Source: Escherichia coli (GTDB taxonomy: Bacteria; Pseudomonadota; Gammaproteobacteria; Enterobacterales; Enterobacteriaceae). From it: a DNA stretch of 64,000 nt. The DNA is taken from the NCBI RefSeq assembly GCF_044324875.1, contig NZ_CP172185.1; one strand, written 5' to 3'. Made by a program: the position numbers and the translations under genes. The notes beneath the pieces are model-generated. The model worked only from the letters and a program-made list of their open reading frames with translations. It made no database searches and was not told the DNA's origin. Below, one piece after another: positions 9,756 to 23,030 of this stretch; the first letter of the stretch is position 1, and the number at the start of each line of letters is the position of its first letter.

Positions 9756-11234
9756 TTACGCATTCGACCAGCTCTGGATCGAATCTTCATTCCCCAGCTC
9801 ACCATGCATCACTTCATACGATTTTTTCAGGATCACATCAGTGTGTTTGGTTAGGTCTTTGAAAATGCCTTTATTCATCGCGTTGTAGCGTTTGGCGTTG
9901 CTCTCAACAGGCATAAAGATATCTTTCACGCGAACCATTTTGTCGACAGCCGTTGCGTAATCCGGGTATAGCCCCAGACCTACCGCCGTATTAATCGCTG
10001 CCCCCAGGCTTGCACAACCATTAATGGCGTTACGGCGTGCCGGAAGGTTGAACACGTCGGCAAAAATCTGCATAAACAGATCGCTGTTCGAACCGCCGCC
10101 AGTAATGATCACATGCTTTGCAAAGTGATTCATTTCATTACACATATTGTCGTAATTGTTCTTCAGCGTCAGCGCCACGCTTTCCAGTATCGAACGATAT
10201 ATCCATGCGTAATCCATGCTGGAATCAAAGCCAATCATAATCCCGCGTTTGTACGGTTCCCACGGATTGGTCAGCCAGTCCAGCACCGTCATCAGACCAT
10301 TACAGCCTGGCGGCACACAAGAAGCTTTTTTGTTGAGTAAATCTTCCGGTGAAAGATCCTGCGCCCTGGCATCCTGAATTAACGACTCGCCTAGCATGTC
10401 GCGCAGCCAGCTCACCGTCCACATGCCTTTGCGAATACCGTAACCTTCATACAGCAAGGTTTGCGGAATAGAAGACATAATCGGCCAGTACGCTACCGGA
10501 TCTTTCGGCAGTACTTTGCCGTTCATCATCAACGCGATGTAAGTGCCAAGAGAAATTACCGCAGTTTCATCATCCAGTAACCCGGCTCCCAGTGCTTCTA
10601 CCGGTTTATCACTGGTGGTACAAACAACCGGCAGCCCAGCCGGGAAATGTGTCGCCAGCGCGGCTTGAGGAGTGATATGCCCAAGAACAGTGCCCGGCAT
10701 TTGCACATCAAACAGCATATGACGGGGGATATTAAACTTCTCCATGACTGCGGCATCTTCACTCCATGCCCAGGTCTTATAATCCACCGGCCACTGACCA
10801 AAATAGTTGGCGATATTGTCTTTAAACTCGCCGGTTAAGCGATGCGTCAGATAACCCGAAAAAGAGGTGACATATGCCACGTCAGGATTCGTATGTTCGT
10901 AAGGGCGTGTAACGCGTGCATCCTGCCAGCTAATCAACGGCGCAGCTGGCGTGCCATCGGCTTTCAATAACGCACGGCAGCAACGGATGGATCCCAGACC
11001 AATACCGACAATATCTTCTTTATTTCCGGCAAACTGACTCATCAAATCGTGACCGGCAAAGCATAATGATGCCCATAAATCGTCGTCAGGATGTTCTGCG
11101 GTATCGGCATCTGGCGTGTGCATCGGCTGCAATAAGCCTTTGCCTTCGCAAACCACATTACCTTCCAGATCGTACATCACCACTTTTGTGCTCTGACTTC
11201 CACCATCAATCCCTATGATGTATTTTTTCGACAT
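9756..11234 (-). CDS. ygcE: FGGY-family carbohydrate kinase
   Basis: 492 aa; N-terminal IGIDGGSQSTK typical of FGGY kinases. Confidence 0.88.
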   Translation of the reverse strand: MSKKYIIGIDGGSQSTKVVMYDLEGNVVCEGKGLLQPMHTPDADTAEHPDDDLWASLCFAGHDLMSQFAGNKEDIVGIGLGSIRCCRALLKADGTPAAPLISWQDARVTRPYEHTNPDVAYVTSFSGYLTHRLTGEFKDNIANYFGQWPVDYKTWAWSEDAAVMEKFNIPRHMLFDVQMPGTVLGHITPQAALATHFPAGLPVVCTTSDKPVEALGAGLLDDETAVISLGTYIALMMNGKVLPKDPVAYWPIMSSIPQTLLYEGYGIRKGMWTVSWLRDMLGESLIQDARAQDLSPEDLLNKKASCVPPGCNGLMTVLDWLTNPWEPYKRGIMIGFDSSMDYAWIYRSILESVALTLKNNYDNMCNEMNHFAKHVIITGGGSNSDLFMQIFADVFNLPARRNAINGCASLGAAINTAVGLGLYPDYATAVDKMVRVKDIFMPVESNAKRYNAMNKGIFKDLTKHTDVILKKSYEVMHGELGNEDSIQSWSNA

Positions 11235-11260
11235 GATTTTTCTCCTGTAATTTTCTGGAC

Positions 11261-12538
11261 TTACTTGCTGCTAGCCATAGCAGGGGCGCTATCAGCAGTA
11301 CGAATTTTTTGGAACAGCAAAAAGGTAAAGACGATCACCATGGCAAGCGCCGCCATGCCCATCAGCCACATATTGCGGTAGGCTTCTGCAGCGGGCAGGG
11401 TGTCTTGCCAGTAGCCGATAATCGGGTAAACGAAGACATCCGGCAGGAATCCAATCACCGAACAAATACCTACCGTGGTGCCCATAATGTAAGACGGTGT
11501 TCTCGCTTCGCCAGGGCAGGCCCAGTACAGCCCGCGTGAGGCGTAACAGGTGAATCCCAGCAGTAAAATCAGGCCAATCCCCATCGCGACCGATTGCGGG
11601 TTAGAGTTCGTGACGAGCAGGGCAGTTAACGCCAGCAAGCCGAGTACGGAAAGGATTTGGATCACGCGGGTAGGGGATTTCACTTTGCTGTAGGTGGTGA
11701 TAATGCCACCAAGTGGGCCGCACAGTGCGCGGAAGATTTTGTTGATCACAATCCCCATGTAGCTCGCCGCCACCAGCGACATGCCGTACATTTCGGTCAG
11801 ATAGTTGGTGGAGTAACTCAGAATGGCGTAGATGGTGAAGACACCAAAAATCACCATGCTGCAATACCAGGTGGTGCTGATGCGCAAAACAGCCAGGATG
11901 TCGCTAAGCTGGAATGACTGTTTTTCTTCGTTATTGGTATTGCACAGGTTGTTGTTATCGCTAACAAAAAACCAACACAAAATGCCCAGCAGAATGTAAA
12001 CCACACTATAGATAATAATGACCGTTTTCAGGCTGGCGCTGTCATCCGGTGCAAAGCGAGAAAAGACCCACATGGTAAACACCGCCAGCGACATTACACC
12101 GACGCCGCGCAGCCCTTCCATCCAGCCCATAATTTTCCCTTGCTCGCTATGATCGCCCAGCAACGAGGCGGCTTTAATCGACACCGACCACAGCATTAAA
12201 ATAGTGGTTATCGCAAAGGCGACCTGAATACAGAGCATTACCCACAGCGGTGGATATGTTGCCATTAACAGACCCAGTAATCCGGTAATGATCATCGCGG
12301 AAGTAATCATTTTGCGGTGTGAAAATTTATCGGCAATAACGCCGCTGGGGGCATAAAGAATAATAGCCGCAATACCAAAGGTACTCATTATTAAACCTAT
12401 CTCGGTATTGCTGAATCCCATAAATTTCGCCATGGGAATTTGATAAATATAACGTAAATAAGCCAGGTCGAAACTAACGCCGCCGCTAAAACTAATTATC
12501 GCGAGGGTTATCCAACGGCGATATGAGTTGTGTTGCAT
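11261..12538 (-). CDS. yqcE: MFS transporter
   Basis: 425 aa, about 12 predicted TM helices. Confidence 0.85.
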   Translation of the reverse strand: MQHNSYRRWITLAIISFSGGVSFDLAYLRYIYQIPMAKFMGFSNTEIGLIMSTFGIAAIILYAPSGVIADKFSHRKMITSAMIITGLLGLLMATYPPLWVMLCIQVAFAITTILMLWSVSIKAASLLGDHSEQGKIMGWMEGLRGVGVMSLAVFTMWVFSRFAPDDSASLKTVIIIYSVVYILLGILCWFFVSDNNNLCNTNNEEKQSFQLSDILAVLRISTTWYCSMVIFGVFTIYAILSYSTNYLTEMYGMSLVAASYMGIVINKIFRALCGPLGGIITTYSKVKSPTRVIQILSVLGLLALTALLVTNSNPQSVAMGIGLILLLGFTCYASRGLYWACPGEARTPSYIMGTTVGICSVIGFLPDVFVYPIIGYWQDTLPAAEAYRNMWLMGMAALAMVIVFTFLLFQKIRTADSAPAMASSK

Positions 12539-12562
12539 ATCGTATTCCCATTTGTAATAGAC

Positions 12563-12610
12563 AAAAAAAAGAGAAAAGTAAGCCGCCCTTTCAGGTGGAT
12601 TACTTTTCTC
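12563..12610 (-). terminator. Leader hairpin + T8 on minus strand immediately upstream of yqcE start (candidate attenuator)
   Basis: Perfect 11-bp inverted repeat GAGAAAAGTAA / TTACTTTTCTC (12571..12581 and 12600..12610) with A8 at 12563..12570 on + strand, i.e. U8 after the hairpin in the minus-strand transcript; about 22 nt before the yqcE ATG. Confidence 0.55.
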
Positions 12611-12716
12611 AGGTCTCTAGTAATTGCAATAAGAAATAACATGGAAAGCAGTGGTGTTGTGTGAGAGTAATCACGCTTCTGCTTTTTAAAATTATTTGAC
12701 AATTCGAATATCACAC

Positions 12717-12732
12717 TGTGATTACGATCACA
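12717..12732. promoter_or_regulatory. Candidate CRP binding site, TGTGA-N6-TCACA perfect half-sites
   Basis: TGTGATTACGATCACA read directly in the divergent yqcE / ygcW intergenic region. Confidence 0.55.
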
Positions 12733-12788
12733 TTAGCGATTATGCCCTTATGATAAAAATTATCTCCAGTTACCAGAGATAATGAGAA

Positions 12789-12832
12789 AGGTAACTTCCC
12801 TCTCGCGGGGGAAGTTACCTTTCTTTTTTTTT
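12789..12832 (+). terminator. Leader hairpin + T-run on plus strand 25 nt upstream of ygcW start (candidate attenuator)
   Basis: Perfect 12-bp inverted repeat AGGTAACTTCCC / GGGAAGTTACCT with 8-nt loop, followed by TTCTTTTTTTTT. Confidence 0.6.
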
Positions 12833-12856
12833 GCCTTACGGAAATTGGAGCTAACT

Positions 12857-13642
12857 ATGTCAATCGAATCTCTCAATGCGTTCTCAATGGATTTTTTCTC
12901 CCTGAAAGGCAAAACCGCAATTGTTACCGGCGGGAATAGCGGTTTAGGCCAGGCATTTGCCATGGCGCTGGCCAAAGCAGGCGCAAATATCTTTATTCCA
13001 AGCTTCGTTAAAGATAACGGCGAAACAAAGGAAATGATTGAAAAACAGGGTGTTGAGGTGGACTTCATGCAGGTGGATATCACCGCAGAAGGCGCGCCGC
13101 AGAAGATAATCGCCGCCTGTTGCGAACGTTTCGGTACCGTCGATATTCTGATTAACAATGCCGGTATTTGTAAGCTGAATAAGGTGCTGGACTTCGGTCG
13201 TGCCGACTGGGACCCGATGATTGATGTGAACCTGACCGCCGCATTCGAGTTAAGCTATGAAGCTGCAAAAATTATGATCCCGCAGAAAAGCGGTAAAATC
13301 ATTAATATCTGTTCATTATTCTCTTACTTAGGTGGACAATGGTCACCTGCATATTCTGCCACTAAACATGCTCTTGCCGGATTCACCAAAGCTTATTGTG
13401 ATGAACTAGGTCAATATAATATTCAGGTAAATGGTATTGCCCCTGGCTATTATGCAACAGATATTACGCTGGCGACACGCAGTAATCCAGAAACTAATCA
13501 GCGCGTTCTTGATCATATTCCGGCAAACCGTTGGGGCGATACTCAGGATTTAATGGGCGCAGCCGTATTCCTCGCAAGTCCGGCTTCAAATTATGTTAAC
13601 GGGCATTTATTAGTGGTCGATGGCGGTTATTTAGTGCGCTAA
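12857..13642 (+). CDS. ygcW: Short-chain dehydrogenase/reductase
   Basis: ORF 12782..13642; start set at internal ATG 12857 preceded by GGAG; Rossmann TGGNSGLG, catalytic YSATK. Confidence 0.9.
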   Translation: MSIESLNAFSMDFFSLKGKTAIVTGGNSGLGQAFAMALAKAGANIFIPSFVKDNGETKEMIEKQGVEVDFMQVDITAEGAPQKIIAACCERFGTVDILINNAGICKLNKVLDFGRADWDPMIDVNLTAAFELSYEAAKIMIPQKSGKIINICSLFSYLGGQWSPAYSATKHALAGFTKAYCDELGQYNIQVNGIAPGYYATDITLATRSNPETNQRVLDHIPANRWGDTQDLMGAAVFLASPASNYVNGHLLVVDGGYLVR

Positions 13643-13711
13643 TCCATAACGGTGGTTTCTGTTTTCTCTTATTAATGATTATTCCATTTTTATTATCAGG
13701 AAGGAATTACT

Positions 13712-15166
13712 ATGTCTTTATCTCGCGCAGCGATTGTCGACCAGCTAAAGAAAATTGTTGGTGCAGATCGCGTAATTACCGATGAAACAGTATTAAAGAA
13801 GAACAGTATTGACCGTTTTCGCAAATTTCCGGATATTCATGGCATTTATACTTTGCCGATTCCGGCAGCGGTCGTAAAACTCGGTTCCACAGAACAAGTA
13901 TCCCGTGTGCTGAATTTTATGAATGCGCACAAAATTAACGGTGTGCCGCGTACCGGTGCTTCCGCTACCGAAGGTGGGCTGGAAACCGTTGTGGAAAACT
14001 CGGTGGTGCTCGACGGCTCTGCCATGAATCAAATCATTAATATTGATATTGAGAATATGCAGGCCACGGCGCAATGCGGAGTTCCGCTGGAAGTGCTGGA
14101 AAACGCGTTGCGTGAAAAAGGTTACACCACGGGGCATTCTCCGCAGTCAAAGCCGCTGGCGCAGATGGGCGGCCTGGTAGCAACCCGCAGTATCGGGCAG
14201 TTCTCCACACTCTACGGCGCAATCGAAGATATGGTCGTTGGTCTGGAAGCAGTATTGGCTGATGGCACCGTAACACGCATTAAAAACGTACCACGCCGCG
14301 CGGCAGGCCCGGACATTCGTCACATCATCATCGGCAACGAAGGTGCATTGTGCTATATCACTGAAGTAACAGTGAAAATCTTTAAGTTCACCCCGGAAAA
14401 CAACCTCTTCTACGGCTATATCCTGGAAGACATGAAAACCGGCTTCAACATCCTACGTGAAATCATGGTGGAAGGGTATCGTCCGTCGATCGCTCGTTTG
14501 TATGACGCTGAAGATGGCACCCAACACTTCACCCATTTTGCCGACGGAAAATGCGTGCTGATCTTTATGGCTGAAGGTAACCCTCGCATTGCGAAGGCGA
14601 CGGGCGAAGGGATTGCTGAAATCGTGGCACGTTACCCGCAATGCCAGCGAGTGGACAGCAAGCTGATCGAAACCTGGTTTAACAACCTGAACTGGGGACC
14701 GGATAAAGTAGCTGCCGAACGTGTGCAGATCCTCAAAACCGGCAACATGGGCTTTACCACCGAAGTGTCCGGCTGCTGGAGCTGCATTCACGAAATCTAC
14801 GAAAGCGTTATTAACCGTATTCGTACCGAGTTCCCGCACGCCGACGACATCACCATGCTGGGCGGTCACTCCTCTCATAGCTATCAGAACGGCACCAACA
14901 TGTACTTCGTCTACGACTACAACGTCGTTGACTGTAAGCCGGAAGAGGAAATCGACAAGTACCACAATCCGCTCAACAAAATCATCTGCGAAGAAACCAT
15001 TCGCCTCGGTGGTTCGATGGTGCACCACCACGGTATCGGTAAACATCGCGTTCACTGGAGCAAACTGGAACACGGCAGCGCGTGGGCGTTGCTGGAAGGG
15101 CTGAAAAAGCAGTTCGATCCTAACGGCATTATGAATACGGGTACTATCTATCCGATTGAAAAATAA
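13712..15166 (+). CDS. ygcU: FAD-linked oxidase (GlcD / alkyl-DHAP synthase-like)
   Basis: 484 aa; FAD-binding PCMH-type N-terminal domain. Confidence 0.88.
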   Translation: MSLSRAAIVDQLKKIVGADRVITDETVLKKNSIDRFRKFPDIHGIYTLPIPAAVVKLGSTEQVSRVLNFMNAHKINGVPRTGASATEGGLETVVENSVVLDGSAMNQIINIDIENMQATAQCGVPLEVLENALREKGYTTGHSPQSKPLAQMGGLVATRSIGQFSTLYGAIEDMVVGLEAVLADGTVTRIKNVPRRAAGPDIRHIIIGNEGALCYITEVTVKIFKFTPENNLFYGYILEDMKTGFNILREIMVEGYRPSIARLYDAEDGTQHFTHFADGKCVLIFMAEGNPRIAKATGEGIAEIVARYPQCQRVDSKLIETWFNNLNWGPDKVAAERVQILKTGNMGFTTEVSGCWSCIHEIYESVINRIRTEFPHADDITMLGGHSSHSYQNGTNMYFVYDYNVVDCKPEEEIDKYHNPLNKIICEETIRLGGSMVHHHGIGKHRVHWSKLEHGSAWALLEGLKKQFDPNGIMNTGTIYPIEK

Positions 15167-15207
15167 TGTGTCAGGCAGCGTTCCGCGATGACGGAGCGTT
15201 GCCTTTT

Positions 15208-15237
15208 CGGCTTCTCAGGCGAGAAGCCGTTCTTATT
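15208..15237 (+). terminator. GC-rich hairpin (CGGCTTCTC-AGGC-GAGAAGCCG) followed by TTCTTATT between ygcU and ygcS; weak terminator or attenuator
   Basis: 9-bp perfect stem read directly; U-tract interrupted. Confidence 0.35.
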
Positions 15238-15259
15238 ACCGGACAATGAAGGGGTAAAG

Positions 15260-16597
15260 ATGAACACTTCACCGGTGCGAATGGATGATTTACCGCTTAA
15301 CCGTTTTCACTGTCGAATTGCTGCGCTCACTTTCGGCGCACACCTGACCGACGGTTATGTTCTAGGCGTCATTGGTTACGCCATTATTCAGCTTACGCCC
15401 GCCATGCAACTGACGCCGTTTATGGCGGGTATGATCGGCGGCTCGGCGCTCCTTGGTTTGTTTCTTGGCAGCCTGGTTCTTGGGTGGATCTCCGACCATA
15501 TTGGTCGGCAAAAAATCTTCACCTTCAGCTTTTTGCTGATTACGCTCGCTTCGTTCTTGCAATTTTTTGCCACCACGCCAGAGCATCTTATTGGATTGCG
15601 CATTTTGATCGGCATTGGTCTGGGAGGCGATTACTCAGTCGGTCACACCTTGCTGGCTGAATTTTCCCCGCGCCGCCATCGCGGTATTTTGCTGGGCGCA
15701 TTCAGTGTGGTGTGGACCGTAGGCTATGTGCTGGCAAGTATTGCCGGACATCACTTTATTACCGAAAGCCCGGAGGCCTGGCGCTGGCTGCTGGCATCAG
15801 CGGCGTTACCAGCCTTGCTGATTACGCTGCTACGTTGGGGCACGCCGGAATCGCCACGCTGGCTACTGCGCCAGGGGCGTTTTGCTGAAGCTCACGCTAT
15901 CGTGCATCGCTACTTTGGTCCCCATGTTTTACTGGGCGATGAAGTGGCAACGGCGACCCATAAACACATCAAAACATTGTTCTCTTCGCGCTACTGGCGG
16001 CGCACAGCGTTTAACAGCGTCTTCTTTGTCTGCCTCGTAATCCCATGGTTTGTGATTTATACCTGGCTGCCAACTATCGCCCAAACTATTGGTCTGGAAG
16101 ATGCGCTGACAGCCAGCCTGATGCTTAATGCGTTGTTAATTGTGGGCGCGCTGCTGGGATTAGTTCTGACGCACCTGCTGGCACATCGCAAATTTTTGCT
16201 GGGAAGTTTTTTGCTGCTGGCGGCAACGCTGGTCGTGATGGCCTGTTTGCCTTCCGGCAGTTCATTAACGCTGCTGCTTTTTGTTCTCTTCAGCACCACC
16301 ATTTCGGCAGTCAGTAATCTGGTGGGCATTTTGCCTGCGGAAAGTTTTCCTACTGACATTCGCTCGCTGGGCGTCGGTTTTGCCACCGCCATGAGTCGGT
16401 TGGGCGCGGCAGTAAGTACGGGCCTGCTGCCGTGGGTGCTGGCGCAGTGGGGAATGCAAGTCACCTTATTGCTCCTGGCGGCAGTGTTGTTGGTTGGTTT
16501 TGTCGTGACCTGGCTATGGGCACCAGAAACCAAAGCACTCCCGCTGGTGGCGGCGGGAAATGTAGGAGGTGCGAATGAACATTCTGTTAGCGTTTAA
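15260..16597 (+). CDS. ygcS: MFS transporter
   Basis: ORF 15188..16597; start moved to ATG 15260 (MNTSPVRMDD) with GGGG SD-like upstream. Confidence 0.85.
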   Translation: MNTSPVRMDDLPLNRFHCRIAALTFGAHLTDGYVLGVIGYAIIQLTPAMQLTPFMAGMIGGSALLGLFLGSLVLGWISDHIGRQKIFTFSFLLITLASFLQFFATTPEHLIGLRILIGIGLGGDYSVGHTLLAEFSPRRHRGILLGAFSVVWTVGYVLASIAGHHFITESPEAWRWLLASAALPALLITLLRWGTPESPRWLLRQGRFAEAHAIVHRYFGPHVLLGDEVATATHKHIKTLFSSRYWRRTAFNSVFFVCLVIPWFVIYTWLPTIAQTIGLEDALTASLMLNALLIVGALLGLVLTHLLAHRKFLLGSFLLLAATLVVMACLPSGSSLTLLLFVLFSTTISAVSNLVGILPAESFPTDIRSLGVGFATAMSRLGAAVSTGLLPWVLAQWGMQVTLLLLAAVLLVGFVVTWLWAPETKALPLVAAGNVGGANEHSVSV

Positions 16598-17354
16598 AGC
16601 CGAACCGGATGTCGGAATGCTGGCGGAAAAAGAGTGGCAGGCGGCGGCTCAGGGTAATAGCGGACCGGATGTTTCGCTTCTGCGAAGTTTACTCGGTGCT
16701 GATGAACAGGCTGCCGCCGCGCTGCTGTTGGCGCAGAGAAAAAACGGTACGTCGATGTCTTTAACCGCGTTGAGCATGGGGGATGAACGGGCGTTGCACT
16801 GGCTGCGCTATCTCATGGCTCTTGGGTTTGAGGAAGCTGTATTGCTGGAGACGGTGGCAGATCTGCGCTTTGCGCCGGAATTTGTCGCTCGCCATATTGC
16901 CGAATGGCAGCGTCAGAATCCGCTGGATCTGATAATTACCGGCTGCCAAAGCAGCGAAGGGCAGAATGGGCAAACGCCATTTTTGCTGGCGGAAATGCTG
17001 GGCTGGCCCTGCTTCACCCAGGTGGAGCGTTTTACTCTCGACGCGCCGTTTATCACCCTTGAACAGCGTACTGAAAACGGGCTGCGCTGTTGCCGGGTTC
17101 GCTTGCCTGCGGTGATTGCCGTGCGTCAGTGCGGTGAAGTGGCCTTGCCAGTACCGGGAATGCGTCAGCGAATGGCGGCGGGGAAAGCAGCAATTATCCG
17201 TAAAACTGTTGCTGCCGAATTGCCAGCGATGCTGTGTCTGCAACTGGCAAGAGCAGAGCAACAACGCGGAGCGACGCTGATTGATGGGCAAACGGTAGCA
17301 GAAAAAGCGCAAAAGCTATGGCAGGACTATTTACGCCAAAGGATGCAGCCATGA
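16575..17354 (+). CDS. ygcR: Electron transfer flavoprotein beta-subunit-like protein
   Basis: ORF 16569..17354; EtfB/FixA-like; stop overlaps ygcQ start (ATGA). Confidence 0.82.
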   Translation: MNILLAFKAEPDVGMLAEKEWQAAAQGNSGPDVSLLRSLLGADEQAAAALLLAQRKNGTSMSLTALSMGDERALHWLRYLMALGFEEAVLLETVADLRFAPEFVARHIAEWQRQNPLDLIITGCQSSEGQNGQTPFLLAEMLGWPCFTQVERFTLDAPFITLEQRTENGLRCCRVRLPAVIAVRQCGEVALPVPGMRQRMAAGKAAIIRKTVAAELPAMLCLQLARAEQQRGATLIDGQTVAEKAQKLWQDYLRQRMQP

Positions 17355-18211
17355 ATATCGCAATTGTGACAATAAATCAGGAGAATGCCGCAATAGCGAG
17401 CTGGCAGGCGGCGCAGGATTTCAGCGGTTGTACCCTGGCGCACTGGAAGATTGAACCTCAGCCCGCTGTGGCGGAACAGGTGCTGGATGCGCTGGTGGAA
17501 CAGTGGCAGCGAACGCCTGCGGACGTTGTTCTCTTTCCGCCGGGAACGTTTGGCGATGAACTGTCGACCCGGCTGGCCTGGCGTTTACATGGTGCAAGCA
17601 TCTGCCAGGTGACTTCGTTAGATATTCCAACCGTAAGCGTGCGCAAATCCCACTGGGGAAATGCGCTAACGGCGACGCTGCAAACAGAAAAACGCCCGCT
17701 ATGCCTTTCCCTGGCGCGTCAGGCGGGAGCAGCGAAAAACGCCACGTTGCCCTCTGGTATGCAGCAACTGAACATTGTCCCAGGTGCGCTTCCCGACTGG
17801 CTGGTTAGCATAGAGAATCTGAAAAATGTTAGCCGCGACCCATTAGCTGAAGCCAGACGGGTGCTGGTGGTGGGGCAGGGCGGAGAGGCAGATAACCAGG
17901 AAATCGCTATGCTGGCAGAAAAGCTGGGAGCCGAAGTGGGCTACAGTCGGGCACGAGTGATGAACGGTGGCGTTGATGCCGAAAAAGTGATTGGTATTTC
18001 TGGACATCTGCTGGCACCTGAGGTGTGTATTGTTGTTGGCGCTTCCGGCGCAGCAGCGTTAATGGCGGGCGTACGCAATAGCAAGTTTGTGGTGGCGATT
18101 AATCATGACGCCAGCGCGGCGGTATTTTCACAGGCAGATGTTGGCGTGGTTGATGACTGGAAAGCGGTGCTGGAGGCTCTGGTGACAAACATTCACGCAG
18201 ATTGCCAATAA
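17351..18211 (+). CDS. ygcQ: Electron transfer flavoprotein alpha-subunit-like protein
   Basis: ORF 17318..18211; start set at ATG 17351 overlapping ygcR stop; EtfA/FixB-like C-terminal FAD domain. Confidence 0.82.
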   Translation: MNIAIVTINQENAAIASWQAAQDFSGCTLAHWKIEPQPAVAEQVLDALVEQWQRTPADVVLFPPGTFGDELSTRLAWRLHGASICQVTSLDIPTVSVRKSHWGNALTATLQTEKRPLCLSLARQAGAAKNATLPSGMQQLNIVPGALPDWLVSIENLKNVSRDPLAEARRVLVVGQGGEADNQEIAMLAEKLGAEVGYSRARVMNGGVDAEKVIGISGHLLAPEVCIVVGASGAAALMAGVRNSKFVVAINHDASAAVFSQADVGVVDDWKAVLEALVTNIHADCQ

Positions 18212-18217
18212 CGTGCT

Positions 18218-18322
18218 GCCGGATGATCCTGCCTACGGTTCTGGGCTGGGGACTTGTAAGCCTGATAAGACGCGTCAAGCGTCGTATCAGGCGCTGAATG
18301 TCGGATGTGGCGTGCAGCCTAC
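18218..18322. repeat. REP/BIME-type extragenic palindromic repeat cluster
   Basis: GCCTGATAAGACGCGTCAAGCGTCGTATCAGGC palindrome plus flanking GCCGGATG.. and ..GCAGCCTAC units between convergent ygcQ and ygcP. Confidence 0.6.
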
Positions 18323-18357
18323 AAATCACACAAATTCAACTCGTTACGAGTATCCCG

Positions 18358-18933
18358 TCAAAGCAATTTTTTCGCTAACGTCCAGACCCCGGTATTCGTG
18401 GTGGAAAGCGCCACAACACCCGCGTTAATCGCATTACGCGCATCTTCTTCATCGCACACCAGCCCGCCGGCAATCAGCGGTTGGCGGATTTTCTCCGTCA
18501 CCCAGCCTAGCACTTTAGGCATACAGCCTGGCAGGATCTCAATACAATCCGGATTCGATTGCGCAACTTGCTTATCAATGTTGTGAAACGAAATCGAATC
18601 AACAATAAACAGGCGATGAATACAGAAAAAACCTTCCGCTCTTGCCGCTTTTAGCATCGATGCTTTCGTGCTGATAATGCCGTCCGCCTCGGTCACCAGT
18701 TTCAGAAACTGAATCACCACTTCTTTGTTCGATGCGCCTTCCAGCAAATCAACATGAATAAAGGCATATTTTCCGGCGTTTTTAATCTTTTTAACGATAT
18801 TACTGATGGTGCAGATATTGCCGTACAACACGGAAATAAACTGGCATTCAGAGTCGATTGCCAGTTGCAGGCTGGCATTATCTTTAACGGCAGCAATCAC
18901 CGGATTCTGGCGGAGCAGGTGTAAGAGGGGCAT
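18358..18933 (-). CDS. ygcP: GlpP-family putative RNA-binding antiterminator
   Basis: 191 aa; matches glycerol-3-phosphate-responsive antiterminator family as I recognise it. Confidence 0.8.
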   Translation of the reverse strand: MPLLHLLRQNPVIAAVKDNASLQLAIDSECQFISVLYGNICTISNIVKKIKNAGKYAFIHVDLLEGASNKEVVIQFLKLVTEADGIISTKASMLKAARAEGFFCIHRLFIVDSISFHNIDKQVAQSNPDCIEILPGCMPKVLGWVTEKIRQPLIAGGLVCDEEDARNAINAGVVALSTTNTGVWTLAKKLL

Positions 18934-18949
18934 AAATTATCCTTATTAT

Positions 18950-19210
18950 TTATCCAAAGCGGTAGGTGATGCCGAATCCGGAAGGCGGATAGTGCCACTG
19001 TTGTAGCGTTTTTTCATCGCACAGCAAACGGCAGGTGCCGCACTCCAGACAATTACGATAATCAACGTGCAAATCACCCTCCGGTGTGAGCGAAAAAAGA
19101 CCAGCCGGACAAGCGTTAATCAACTGTTGTGCCGTCTGGCGCTCAACGGAGTCTGCCGGAACAATATGTGGCGCATCAGCAGCGCGCCAGAGATTACGGG
19201 CTACAGACAT
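18950..19210 (-). CDS. ygcO: Ferredoxin-like protein (FixX-like)
   Basis: ORF 18950..19246; start set at ATG 19210 overlapping the ygcN stop; 4-Cys motif CLECGTCRLLC. Confidence 0.8.
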   Translation of the reverse strand: MSVARNLWRAADAPHIVPADSVERQTAQQLINACPAGLFSLTPEGDLHVDYRNCLECGTCRLLCDEKTLQQWHYPPSGFGITYRFG

Positions 19211-20502
19211 CGAATACTCCTGACAACATCGCCCGCCAGATGCCACAGGCCATGACGACGTAAATGACGCCAGAATAACTGGCGCAGCGGTGGAACAGGT
19301 TTATCACCCTGATCCCATAAATCACGGGAAATATCCTGCATTAACGCAGGCCACGCCCGATACCAGCCAGGGCGTTGCAAAAGCGCCGGAACATGCTGAT
19401 AACGCTGTAAAACATCCCACAGCAGGCTGCGCTCTACGTTGTGATGATAAAGCGGAAACAGATTTTGCGGCTCGCGGTGCTGGCAGGCGCTTATTAGCGT
19501 TTGTGCCGCCGCCTGCGCGCCAGTTAGCGCCATATCCATGCCGCGCACGGAAATTCCGGTATTGACGCAACTGCGCAACGCATCGCCCACCAGCAGTCAG
19601 CCGTTACCGGCGTATTGCATCGGCATACTGTGTAAGCCACCTTCTGGCACCAGATGCGCACCATACTCCAGTGATTCCGTGTTTTTGATAAGCGGGCGCA
19701 CTGCCGGATGCGTTTTAAAGCGAGCCAGCAGCTCGCTTGCCGGAACACGACTTTGCGTAAGGGAAGAGAGCGGGCAAACAATCCCTAACGAGAGCGTTTG
19801 TTGATTAGTATAAAGAAATGCGCCGCCGGGTAAGTCATCACAGATCCCGCCGCTGAACAGCAACGCTGCGCCTTCGTTATTCTCCAGATGAAAACGTTCT
19901 TCAATAGCGGATGTTTCCAGCGACAGCACTTCTTTGATCCCCAACGCCATCGCTTCGCCAGCAGGACGAGTCACTAACCCGTGACGTTCAGCCAGGACGC
20001 TGTTGGCACCTTCTGCCAGCACCACATAACGGGCGCGGAGAATATCGTCACCACAAATGACACCACACACCCTGCCGTTTTCTTCATACAGCGCATCCAC
20101 CGTCGCACCGGGGATGCATTCGACACCTTCTTTTTCGGCTTCGGCAACCAGCCACGGATCGAACCGTGCACGTAATACACTCCAGGATTCACCGCCGGGC
20201 TGTAAGCTGGAAAACGTCGTTGCGCCATCCGGCGTTAGCAGAGAAAGGCTTTCGTGAGTGATGCGTCGTTCAAGAGGCGCGGTCAGATGAAATTGCGGGA
20301 GGAGTTCCGCGAGCGCATGGGTGTATAAACGCCCGCCGGAAAGATTTTTGCTGCCGGGGATTTCAGCGCGTTCCAGTAACAGAACGGACAAACCTGCCCG
20401 CGCGCAGCGTAAAGCACAAGCGGTACCTGCTATACCCGCACCAATAATAATAATGTCGCAGTTGTCTTCCATGTCATGCCCCAGATATCCAGAACACAAC
20501 AC
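19201..20502 (-). pseudogene. ygcN: FAD-dependent oxidoreductase (FixC / ETF-QO-like) interrupted by in-frame TGA
   Basis: Two track ORFs (19597..20502 and 19201..19590) are in the same frame, separated by TGA at 19597..19599 (..MQYAGNG * LLVGDALRS..); N-terminal FAD fold IIIIGAGIAGTACAL. Confidence 0.6.
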
Positions 20503-20549
20503 CCTAACATGGCGTTACTTAAGGGAAATTGACCGCCGACACACTCTTA

Positions 20550-20915
20550 TCATTCGCCGCGATAGATACAGCCTGCAGTACAGGTTTCTTTTACCATCAC
20601 CGCACTTAACAGCGGCACAACGGGTTTAACCTGATCCCAAATCCATTTTGCTAAAACTTCGCTGGTTGGGTTTTCCAGACCTGGAATATCATTGAGATAA
20701 TGGTGATCGAGGCGCTCATAAGTTGGCTTAAACGCCGCTTTCAGTTCAGCGAAATCGATAATCCAGCCCGTATGCGGATCGACCTCCCCGGTAATTTCCA
20801 GTCGCACCATAAAGGAATGCCCGTGCAGGCGACCACATTTATGCCCTTCCGGGACGTGTGGTAAGCGGTGAGCGGCTTCGAAGGTGAAATCTTTAAATAA
20901 CGTGGTGGACATCAT
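20550..20915 (-). CDS. queD: 6-carboxy-5,6,7,8-tetrahydropterin synthase
   Basis: ORF 20550..20999; start set at [10 protein letters not shown] giving 121 aa; zinc-binding His residues present. Confidence 0.9.
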
Positions 20916-21230
20916 AATTTCTCTACAGGACGATAAAACCGCCGTAGAGTACCGGAAAGGCTGTTTTTTCGCATTATCTAAAACGACTTTGTTGCGCAAA
21001 ATCGCTGATTTATCTTATTGATGGGCAATATTCATTTGTTTTTCATTGGGTTGGTTAATCTATTTTGTTGTTAAAGACTATTGCTAAAACAGGTTAGTCG
21101 ATTTGGTTATTAGTTATCGCTATCCCGTCTTTAATCCACACCGTTCACCCCGTTAACCTTACCTTCTCTTCTGTTTTATGGGCGCTGACAGGGCGCAGAA
21201 ACAGCTTTGCTTACTGGAACATAACGACGC

Positions 21231-23030
21231 ATGACGACACAGGTCCCACCTTCCGCGTTGCTTCCGTTGAACCCGGAGCAACTGGCACGCCTTCAGGCGG
21301 CCACGACCGATTTAACTCCCACCCAGCTTGCCTGGGTTTCTGGCTATTTCTGGGGCGTGCTCAACCAGCAGCCAGCTGCGCTTGCAGCGACGCCAGCGCC
21401 CGCCGCAGAAATGCCGGATATAACTATTATCTCCGCTTCGCAAACCGGCAATGCGCGCCGGGTTGCTGAAGCATTACGCGATGATTTATTGGCGGCAAAA
21501 CTGAACGTTAAGCTGGTGAACGCGGGCGACTATAAATTCAAACAAATCGCCAGCGAAAAACTGCTTATCGTGGTGACGTCAACGCAAGGGGAAGGGGAAC
21601 CGCCGGAAGAAGCCGTCGCGCTGCATAAGTTCCTGTTCTCCAAAAAAGCGCCAAAGCTGGAAAACACTGCATTTGCCGTGTTTAGCCTCGGCGATAGCTC
21701 TTATGAATTTTTCTGCCAGTCCGGGAAAGATTTTGACAGCAAGCTGGCGGAACTGGGCGGTGAACGCCTGCTCGACCGTGTCGATGCCGACGTTGAATAC
21801 CAGGCTGCTGCCATCGAGTGGCGCGCCCGCGTGGTTGATATTCTGAAGTCCCGTGCGCCTGTCGCGGCACCTTCGCAATCCGTCGCTACTGGCGCGGTAA
21901 ATGAAATCCACACCAGCCCGTACAGCAAAGACGCGCCGCTGGTGGCGAGCCTCTCTGTTAACCAGAAAATTACCGGGCGTAACTCTGAAAAAGACGTTCG
22001 CCATATCGAAATTGACTTAGGTGACTCGGGCCTGCGTTACCAGCCGGGTGACGCGCTGGGCGTCTGGTATCAGAACGATCCGGCACTGGTGAAAGAACTT
22101 GTCGAACTGCTGTGGCTGAAAGGCGATGAAACTGTCACCGTTGACGGCAAAACGCTGACCCTGAGCGAAGCGCTCCAGTGGCACTTTGAACTCACCGTCA
22201 ACACCGCGAATATTGTTGAGAACTACGCCACGCTTACCCGCAGCGAAACGCTGCTGCCGCTGGTGGGCGATAAAGCGAAGTTACAGCATTACGCCGCGAC
22301 CACGCCGATTGTTGACATGGTGCGTTTCTCTCCGGCGCAACTGGATGCCGAAGCGCTGATTAACCTGTTGCGCCCGCTGACCCCGCGCCTGTATTCCATC
22401 GCCTCCTCGCAGGCGGAAGTCGAGAACGAAGTGCACGTTACCGTTGGTGTGGTGCGTTACGACGTGGAAGGCCGCGCCCGTGCCGGTGGTGCCTCCAGCT
22501 TCCTCGCGGATCGTGTGGAAGAAGAGGGTGAAGTCCGCGTCTTTATCGAACATAACGACAACTTCCGCCTGCCCGCTAACCCGGAAACCCCGGTGATCAT
22601 GATTGGCCCTGGCACCGGCATCGCGCCGTTCCGTGCCTTTATGCAGCAGCGTGCTGCCGACGAAGCGCCGGGTAAAAACTGGCTATTCTTTGGCAACCCA
22701 CACTTTACGGAAGATTTCCTCTACCAGGTGGAGTGGCAGCGCTACGTGAAAGAAGGCGTATTGAGCCGCATCGATCTTGCCTGGTCGCGCGACCAAAAAG
22801 AAAAAGTTTATGTACAAGACAAACTGCGCGAACAGGGCGCGGAGCTGTGGCGCTGGATCAATGACGGTGCCCACATTTATGTCTGCGGCGACGCTAATCG
22901 CATGGCGAAAGACGTTGAGCAGGCACTTCTGGAAGTGATTGCCGAATTTGGTGGCATGGACACCGAAGCGGCGGATGAATTTTTAAGTGAGCTGCGCGTA
23001 GAGCGCCGTTATCAGCGAGATGTCTACTAA
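21231..23030 (+). CDS. cysJ: Sulfite reductase [NADPH] flavoprotein alpha subunit
   Basis: 599 aa; flavodoxin + FAD/NADPH reductase domains. Confidence 0.96.

Follow-up and report, generated by a model that had tools for sequence, protein, structure and literature searches.

GlpP-type antitermination and the ygc locus

In Bacillus subtilis, the PF04309 regulator GlpP responds to glycerol-3-phosphate by antitermination in the glpD, glpFK, and glpTQ leaders. These have a terminator downstream of the promoter and ahead of the first gene, and the control is combined with catabolite control. For each of the three GlpP-regulated promoters, the 5′ untranslated region (5′ UTR) includes a terminator and a binding site for GlpP, and induction is lost in a glpP deletion (PMC9604022). 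Here, we describe a comparable design in Escherichia coli, in the spacer between the divergent genes yqcE and ygcW, which lies in the ygc island within a 64,000-nucleotide stretch of DNA (the window). Each of the two leaders that leave this spacer carries a small hairpin, P1, whose loop holds two GAGA boxes and whose 3′ strand overlaps a terminator, and the same island encodes YgcP, a GlpP-family protein. We consider it likely, from comparative evidence, that the ygc operons are switched by YgcP-mediated read-through plus CRP. As in B. subtilis glpD, a hairpin with a two-GAGA loop would compete through a 3′ strand that starts the 5′ arm of the terminator. Unlike in B. subtilis, catabolite control would be exerted by CRP class II sites and not by CcpA, and the regulon is a nonglycerol one. 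The YgcP clade has a fixed UUAC/GUAA in P1; moreover, E. coli is a proteobacterium, its ygcP stands in a separate operon, and the system is known from sequence comparison.

Two other groups of regulators invite comparison. BglG, SacY, and LicT, acting on the ribonucleic antiterminator (RAT) of E. coli bgl and B. subtilis sac and lic, also depend on a weak hairpin that is stabilized by a sugar-responsive RNA-binding protein over the 5′ arm of a terminator and permits catabolic read-through. They differ from YgcP in their unrelated fold, with a CAT RNA-binding domain and PRD domains, and in that phosphorylation by the phosphotransferase system, instead of a small ligand, sets their activity, and the RAT is unrelated in sequence and structure to the GAGA loop. 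To our knowledge, BglG is the only catabolic antiterminator of this type established so far in E. coli, and YgcP, if the present reading is true, would represent what we believe to be the second RNA-binding family of catabolic antiterminators in this species. HutP and TRAP are ligand-activated oligomers that read short triplet repeats (NAG and GAG/UAG, respectively). As in the ygc leaders, purine-rich repeats in the leader decide between terminator and antiterminator in the B. subtilis hut and trp systems, but these proteins have other folds, recognize 6 to 11 repeats, compared to the two GAGA boxes that a hairpin loop presents here, and, in the case of TRAP, promote termination. HutP of the B. 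subtilis hut operon is presented as such a system in PMC2425495.

The initial annotation of the window, made from the sequence alone, was not aware of any earlier description of the control that it proposed for the spacer. Several parts of the arrangement had in fact been published, namely, a CRP site, the 3′ ends of the leaders, and the leader RNAs themselves (as "sRNAs"), while for the function of ygcP, no paper was found. "Putative anti-terminator regulatory protein" is the long-standing annotation of YgcP, and our literature search on ygcP, other ygc genes, PF04309, and "GlpP family" returned no functional study. New here are the two predicted targets of YgcP, the reinterpretation of the short RNAs ecr2774 and ecr2775 and of two orphan 3′ ends, a CRP layout with two class II sites, and a family-wide RNA element that is missing from Rfam. 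YgcP thereby gains two concrete candidate RNA targets and a candidate mechanism.

P1/GAGA hairpins and leader terminators

Alignment of the two leaders to each other identified them as paralogous copies of one element, with CA-R-TTAC-Y-AGAGA-N3-4-TGAGAAA-R-GTAA common to both, a similarity that the initial annotation did not mention. P1 is a 6- to 7-bp helix (RUUACY/RGUAAY) that closes a loop with two GAGA boxes (AGAGA-N3-4-GAGAAA), 15 nt long in ygcW and 14 nt in yqcE, and its Y/R pair is compensatory between the leaders (C..G in ygcW and U..A in yqcE). In both leaders, the second GAGA box and the 3′ strand of P1 belong to the 5′ arm of the terminator as well, so that P1 and the terminator are mutually exclusive. 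The terminators themselves were located where the initial annotation had placed them, one on each strand; the hairpin before ygcW extends to 19 bp, the one before yqcE has the arms GAGAAAAGTAA...TTACTTTTCTC (12610..12571), and the distance from terminator end to start codon is 24 nt in both. Structure prediction, which the initial annotation had called for, gave z scores of −5.5 (ygcW leader) and −3.1 (yqcE leader); none of 200 dinucleotide shuffles of either sequence was as stable. The folding energies are −34.2 (ygcW) and −22.3 (yqcE) kcal/mol for the terminators compared to −6.4 and −0.8 kcal/mol for P1 alone, making the terminator 21 to 28 kcal/mol more stable than P1. A weak antiterminator facing a strong terminator is the usual situation where a protein must hold the antiterminator. 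An in-frame ATG at 12782, considered as an alternative ygcW start or as the start of a leader peptide, was rejected: it is not conserved as ATG (the position reads AAGAGAAA or GAGAGAAA in other taxa), lies inside the loop, and leaves no room for a ribosome-binding site.

For comparative analyses, we collected 80 loci around YgcP homologues, with at most one genome per species and 10 kb on each side. In about 50 of these loci, from different phyla, the 11-mer GAGAAARGTAA occurs next to the gene for YgcP. A covariance model, R1, was built from 69 instances and gave 98 matches at E <= 1e-5 in 81 sources (1.5 Mb), exactly two of which fall within the 64-kb window: the yqcE leader (12561-12633, minus strand, 82 bits) and the ygcW leader (12760-12835, plus strand, 76 bits). 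Model matches elsewhere in the window were only antisense echoes of the two palindromes, with no third target upstream of ygcN-O-P. Only yqcE-ygcE and ygcW-U-S-R-Q carry the element, and the control proposed for both ygc operons would not extend to ygcN-O-P. A search of Rfam 15 over window positions 11000-21500 produced no match at E <= 1 except two chance-level ones elsewhere, and on five related loci, it returned nothing relevant and no gathering-score match to the element.

All Enterobacterales loci that extend to the spacer have two divergent copies. Outside this order, copies occur in Vibrio, Photobacterium, Halobacillus, Thalassobacillus, Virgibacillus, Salibacterium, and Geosporobacter, in metagenome-assembled genomes (MAGs) of Clostridia and Syntrophomonadaceae, and in Sporomusa. 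In all, the matches span Enterobacterales, Vibrionaceae, Bacillaceae, Clostridia, and Negativicutes. Both hairpins are kept in every orthologous locus reaching the spacer, so the lack of conservation that the initial annotation had named as grounds for abandoning its idea did not materialize. Loci without a match are on contigs that end before the spacer (L010, L014, L020, and L025) or have an orphan ygcP (L035 and L041). The genes downstream of the element, where assignable, are of the ygcW, ygcE, ygcU, or yqcE type or encode a transporter, in the order ygcW-ygcU(-ygcS-ygcRQ) or yqcE-ygcE and, in Firmicutes, ygcW-ygcE-ygcU(-RQ); amino acid identities between Firmicutes and E. coli are 65 to 79% for YgcW and YgcU and 51 to 60% for YgcE.

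MAFFT misaligned leaders with a 3- to 4-nt insert after P1, and the model-based alignment A5 (98 rows, 94 distinct) was used instead. In this alignment, 94.5% of the P1 cells are paired, compared to 15 to 54% when the partner is slid by 1 to 3 columns. Pair 10/41 is G-C in 65 rows, A-U in 28, and other in 1; pair 15/36 is U-A in 66, C-G in 22, and other in 6; and pair 13/38 shows one A-U to G-C change. Since column 41 is unpaired in the terminator in 59 of the 94 rows, the covariation at 10/41 is no by-product of the terminator. A-U at this pair is found in the yqcE leaders of Enterobacteriaceae and, separately, in Clostridia, Syntrophomonadaceae, and Sporomusa, and the yqcE leaders of Yersiniaceae and Budviciaceae have G-C, a distribution indicative of at least two or three independent double changes. 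As for the terminator, 90% of cells are paired and double changes occur in 11 of 17 pairs, with lower-stem variants including GAGGAAAG/CUUUCCUC and GAGGAUAG/CUGUCCUC. These substitution patterns indicate that both alternative structures are under selection, and each hairpin is overlapped by a covarying alternative helix, which a regulated terminator, unlike a constitutive one, would require. Within the YgcP clade, UUAC/GUAA of P1 is conserved across phyla and the upper stem of the terminator drifts freely; this conservation of P1 sequence suggests protein contacts to P1 in addition to those with the loop.

Several variations of the element were seen in individual lineages. In Clostridia, an extra copy lies inside the operon between ygcE and ygcU (L040 7159-7228, minus; L045 5192-5284, minus; L046 16486-16578, plus), which would make two successive antitermination checkpoints in one operon. 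In one Vibrio, one Budvicia aquatica, and one Photobacterium locus (L042, L044, and L048), the operon consists of the element, ygcE, a major facilitator superfamily (MFS) gene, and ygcP, so that the regulator would be autoregulated there, unlike in E. coli. The two divergent leaders of a single Limnobaculum or Budvicia genome have identical terminator upper stems and loops (L027 16255-16332, minus, and 16576-16653, plus; L033 16310-16387, minus, and 16590-16667, plus), which suggests gene conversion or recent duplication. In Firmicutes, the element also precedes a gene of 514 to 519 amino acids (L046 11812-11879, plus; L045 8055-8129, plus; L053 9790-9861, minus), which in L046, the one locus scanned for it, encodes a BCCT-family (betaine/carnitine/choline type) transporter, and at L054 9735-9810 (minus), it precedes a choline/betaine-type ATP-binding cassette permease/system. 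Such BCCT and choline-type transporters may be a hint to the substrate of the ygc pathway.

Leader RNAs and divergent promoters

Published transcript data bear directly on the two leaders. Term-seq of K-12 in lysogeny broth (LB) recorded two "orphan" 3′ ends for which no regulatory element was noted (PMC7815308, supplementary file 3). One, at K-12 2900311 (minus strand; window 12819), lies 38 nt before ygcW and has 40640 reads, a Rho score of 0.50 (not Rho-dependent), and an intrinsic score of 15.8; the other, at 2900556 (plus strand; window 12574), lies 36 nt before yqcE and has 1557 reads, a Rho score of 0.61 (not Rho-dependent), and an intrinsic score of 11.4 (PMC7815308). In addition, two "previously undetected sRNAs," ecr2774(u+) of 73 nt and ecr2775(u+) of 63 nt, were reported in the spacer by Romero et al. 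2014, and ecr2775 was confirmed by northern blotting (PMC4681348).

With these 2014 RNAs placed on the window, ecr2775 starts at 12625, on the first A of AAUUACU, and ends on the base that follows U8, and ecr2774 runs from about 12764 to 5 nt beyond T9. The placement uses a shift of +1978 from U00096.2 to U00096.3, which we take to be correct and for which the resulting fit of transcription start sites (TSSs) and U tracts is the sole backing. Hence, ecr2774 and ecr2775 of the 2014 study and the orphan ends described by Adams et al. 2021 are the same molecules as the leaders, although as published, neither was linked to YgcP, an antiterminator structure, or a conserved family. The published 3′ ends and short RNAs indicate that both leaders are transcribed and efficiently terminated under noninducing conditions, and the prematurely terminated leader RNAs that the initial annotation proposed to look for thus exist in public K-12 data. 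Two orphan "sRNAs" and two unexplained Term-seq ends of E. coli would become attenuated leaders.

The same molecules could instead be the products of independent trans-acting sRNA genes, or the hairpins could be constitutive attenuators or insulators with leaky read-through. Both RNAs are discrete in LB and catalogued as sRNAs, one of them northern-confirmed (PMC4681348), and their long U tails could bind Hfq. We nevertheless regard this explanation as quite improbable: the element always stands in sense orientation directly upstream of the same operons, in Clostridia also before ygcU inside an operon; the 24 nt between terminator and start codon leave no room for a promoter; and a selected helix competing with the terminator would serve no purpose. 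The leader RNAs may have a trans role on top of their cis role.

Promoter architecture was analyzed in a spacer alignment of 38 Enterobacterales and Vibrionaceae loci. The perfect CRP palindrome that the initial annotation reported in the center of the spacer (site 1; Table 1) is exactly where it was described. This site was predicted in 2007 (PMC1794230), is bound by CRP in chromatin immunoprecipitation of enterotoxigenic E. coli (PMC4287617), and has a Footprint-seq Kd of 1.7 nM (PMC12871828). A second, predicted CRP-like site (site 2), absent from the initial annotation, lies on the yqcE side; it is not among the novel high-affinity sites in the Footprint-seq table (PMC12871828). Both sites are conserved in all 38 loci, each has its center 27 nt from the TG center of its own extended −10 element, and each extended −10 lies 8 to 9 nt upstream of its P1. 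With TSSs taken from RNA-seq ends (about 12764-12766 for ygcW, where the 5′ end of ecr2774 is about 12764, and about 12625/12626 for yqcE, where that of ecr2775 is 12625), both sites are centered near −41.5, as expected of a TGTGA-N6-TCACA site of class II, and the transcripts begin at P1 or up to 4 nt before it. In Serratia, Limnobaculum, and Budvicia, with spacers of 200 to 315 nt, each CRP site keeps to its own promoter.

These features point to two back-to-back CRP class II extended −10 promoters with one site each. Control of both promoters from one central site, as the initial annotation had it, was considered and rejected: site 1 would be at about −100 for yqcE, where a conserved second site occupies the class II position. 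CRP control as such is retained, with one class II site per promoter in place of the single site. The yqcE-ygcE operon has been listed as Crp-activated (PMC8085971), and the spacer was selected by RpoD holoenzyme in published genomic SELEX data (systematic evolution of ligands by exponential enrichment).

Table 1. Positions of the spacer, its regulatory elements, and the genes discussed (window coordinates)
Feature	Position	Strand	Basis and details
yqcE-ygcW spacer	12539-12856		318 bp; divergent genes either side; part of ygc island
ygcW P1	12768..12796	+	AGUUACC 12768-12774; loop AGAGAUAAUGAGAAA 12775-12789; GGUAACU 12790-12796
yqcE P1	12599..12624	-	AUUACU 12624-12619; loop AGAGACCUGAGAAA 12618-12605; AGUAAU 12604-12599
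ygcW leader terminator	12784..12832	+	sequence, folding, Term-seq; 19-bp hairpin 12784-12825, T9 12824-12832
yqcE leader terminator hairpin	12571..12610	-	folding, Term-seq; GAGAAAAGUAA/UUACUUUUCUC lower stem, CC.CC/GG.GG upper stem
U8 tract of yqcE terminator	12563..12570	-	sequence; 3′ end of ecr2775 here
CRP site 1	12717..12732	.	sequence, conserved; perfect palindrome TGTGATTACGATCACA; serves ygcW
CRP site 2 (predicted)	12660..12675	.	sequence, conserved; TGTGAGAGTAATCACG; serves yqcE
ygcW promoter	12751..12766	+	extended -10, conserved TGnTAnnnn block; TG 12751-12752, hexamer TAAAAA 12754-12759; TSS about 12764-12766
yqcE promoter	12625..12641	-	extended -10, conserved TGnTAnnnn block; TG 12641-12640, hexamer TATTTC 12638-12633; TSS about 12625/12626
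yqcE	11261..12538	-	ORF list, weak NCBIfam MFS transporter matches; MFS transporter, first of yqcE-ygcE operon
ygcW	12857..13642	+	ORF list, NCBIfam, K-12 comparison; short-chain dehydrogenase/reductase (SDR) oxidoreductase, heads ygcW-ygcU-ygcS-ygcR-ygcQ
ygcP	18358..18933	-	PF04309; GlpP-family putative RNA-binding antiterminator, proposed trans-acting factor

YgcP as the candidate factor and the ygc island

The assignment of YgcP to the GlpP family, on which the initial annotation built its proposal, is confirmed by a full-length match to PF04309 (G3P_antiterm; residues 12-184, E 1.6e-62). Sequence searches also found homology to PDB entries 3KTS (E 1e-27) and 1VKF, both "glycerol uptake operon antiterminator" proteins, and no NCBIfam model matches YgcP. 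On the RNA side, the published 5′ UTR of B. subtilis glpD reads ...ACGGUC[CUGAGAUGAGGAGA]GACCACAGC...GCUGUUGUGGUCUCUUUUU (PMC9604022 Table S4). It contains a 4-bp P1 (GGUC[CUGAGAUGAGGAGA]GACC) with a 14-nt loop carrying GAGA boxes, and the 3′ strand of this P1 opens the 5′ arm of the terminator; in published data, repeats of a similar kind and terminators seen by Term-seq also occur in the leaders of glpF and glpT.

The same design recurs in more distant loci (46 to 51% identity to YgcP; Blautia, Lachnospiraceae, and Oscillospiraceae), where it lies directly downstream of glpP in 16 of 24. Here, the P1 sequences vary (CGCA/UGCG, CGCU/AGCG, CGCU/GGCG, GCUAU/AUAGC, UCGUUU/AAACGA, and UUUGC/GCAAA), and the loops are of the same two-GAGA type (GGAGAAUGGAGACA or UUAGAGAGUGAGAGA). 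The first downstream gene in the five of these 16 loci that were checked encodes a glycerol-3-phosphate (G3P) oxidase (L063, L070, and L073) or a GlpQ-like protein (L067 and L078). A generic P1/GAGA scan returned 116 elements, compared to 12 in reversed-sequence controls. The ygc leaders thus appear to be the YgcP-clade version of a family-wide element, and the P1/GAGA hairpin is very probably the docking site of YgcP. A compact GlpP-family element (a hairpin of variable sequence, two GAGA boxes, and terminator overlap) could be used to annotate PF04309 regulons. At L067 15325-15556 (plus strand), 5 kb from the glpP homologue of Frisingicoccus, there is also a T-box leader (RF00230, 105.7 bits), which is unrelated to the element.

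A conserved, covarying 5′ UTR structure over a terminator also resembles the expression platform of a riboswitch, in which P1/GAGA would bind a metabolite directly, without protein, and YgcP would be linked merely via the shared pathway; linkage to ygcP and linkage to ygcW, ygcE, and ygcU are inseparable in these data. This we judge very improbable. Most aptamers are larger and more complex than the conserved part, a single hairpin of 6 to 7 bp whose purine-rich loop has about 14 nt, and repeated GAGA boxes in loops are typical of protein sites, as in the repeats read by TRAP and HutP. In B. subtilis, the glpD leader, which has this design, requires GlpP for induction (PMC9604022). Moreover, glycerol-type and ygc-type loci share the loop despite their different pathways, which fits a shared protein family and not a shared ligand.

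Antitermination might also depend on a factor other than YgcP, such as ribosome stalling on a leader peptide, a different RNA-binding protein, or processive antitermination, and YgcP might be an enzyme or act solely on mRNA stability. The antiterminator activity of YgcP is putative, and the TIM-barrel-like fold of PF04309 proteins such as 3KTS and 1VKF (our own search compared sequences) resembles enzymes. GlpP, for its part, is reported to affect also the stability of glpD mRNA in B. subtilis (Glatz et al. 1996). We judge this reading very improbable: no upstream ORF is conserved, the ATG at 12782 not being kept in other taxa; the transcript starts at P1 and leaves no space for a leader peptide; and no regulator-like gene other than that of the PF04309 protein shows consistent linkage to the element.

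YgcP-dependent antitermination plus CRP, as the initial annotation interpreted the spacer, is supported by the comparative evidence, and the following course of events is likely. Each class II promoter makes a leader starting at or near P1. By default, the terminator outcompetes P1 and yields the dead-end RNA of 63 to 73 nt, the state that public data show. When inducer is present, YgcP would bind the GAGA loop and P1 and hold P1 closed, the terminator would be blocked, and the polymerase could enter yqcE-ygcE and ygcW-ygcU-ygcS-ygcR-ygcQ. Expression would then need both cAMP-CRP for initiation and ligand-bound YgcP for read-through. As GlpK makes glycerol-3-phosphate, so the FGGY kinase YgcE would most likely make the inducer, a phosphorylated intermediate.

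The locus has the components of a GlpP-type system: a PF04309 regulator, an intrinsic terminator in the 5′ UTR, an element overlapping its 5′ arm, and linkage of regulator and leader. The genes downstream of the ygc leaders, however, are not of the glpF/K/D/T/Q type that marks a glycerol regulon. The ygc regulon encodes an SDR (ygcW), an FGGY kinase (ygcE), a GlcD-like FAD oxidase (ygcU), electron transfer flavoprotein, and MFS or BCCT transporters, and ygcE scores below every NCBIfam cutoff, that of the GlpK model included. The ygc system appears to work like GlpP but outside the glycerol regulon, and with such a regulon, the effector is probably other than G3P.

Several observations weigh against control by YgcP and CRP. 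The loci were gathered via YgcP, which introduces an ascertainment bias. A motif-first scan of metagenomes, free of this selection, found five contigs, four of which encode a YgcP homologue and the fifth of which ends before the expected ygcP position; with five contigs only, its power is low. In E. coli, 5.5 kb separate the leaders from ygcP, whose own operon lacks the element, and two orphan YgcP homologues (L035 7431-7988, 70% identity; L041 10001-10537, 63%) have neither the element nor ygc genes within 7 to 10 kb on each side. The P1 of yqcE, at −0.8 kcal/mol, is very weak alone and occupies the very 5′ terminus of its transcript, and CRP binding at site 2 is a prediction only. Finally, the Term-seq 3′ ends lie 11 to 13 nt upstream of the U-tract end, where the RNA-seq ends of 2014 are found. 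The Term-seq ends fall where the upper stem, rich in GC, meets the U-rich lower part of the 3′ arm, and the mismatch could be due to exonuclease trimming or to termination within the U-rich arm.

A broader possibility, to which we would give somewhat less than an even chance, is that the P1/two-GAGA hairpin is the general and as yet uncatalogued recognition element of all PF04309 proteins, B. subtilis GlpP and E. coli YgcP included, that a YgcP cassette of regulator, leaders, and ygcW/ygcE/ygcU genes moved whole between Firmicutes and Proteobacteria, that the metabolite sensed is a new phosphorylated product of YgcE, and that the "sRNAs" may also act in trans. The identity of the ligand, if this is true, would give the whole ygc island a function. 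The element itself offers a handle on a catabolic pathway that is conserved from enterobacteria to clostridia.

As for the genomic setting, the segment is 99.8% identical to E. coli strain 06-00048 (601-bp query), and the spacer occurs at >=95% identity in 5033 of 5426 complete E. coli genomes. Compared to K-12, 311 of its 318 positions are identical; none of the seven differences touches a CRP site, a P1 hairpin, a loop, or a terminator, and two of them are in −10 regions. The length of yqcE equals that of K-12 b2775. Between the convergent genes ygcQ and ygcP, a palindrome of the repetitive extragenic palindromic type, GCCTGATAAGACGCG...CGTCGTATCAGGC, occupies 18259-18341 and has a subthreshold match to Rfam naRNA4 (29.5 bits, E 0.046). 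Codon 292 of ygcN (19597-19599, minus strand) is changed from TGG to TGA relative to K-12 (W292*), which, since ygcN-ygcO-ygcP form one operon, could be polar on ygcP in this strain.

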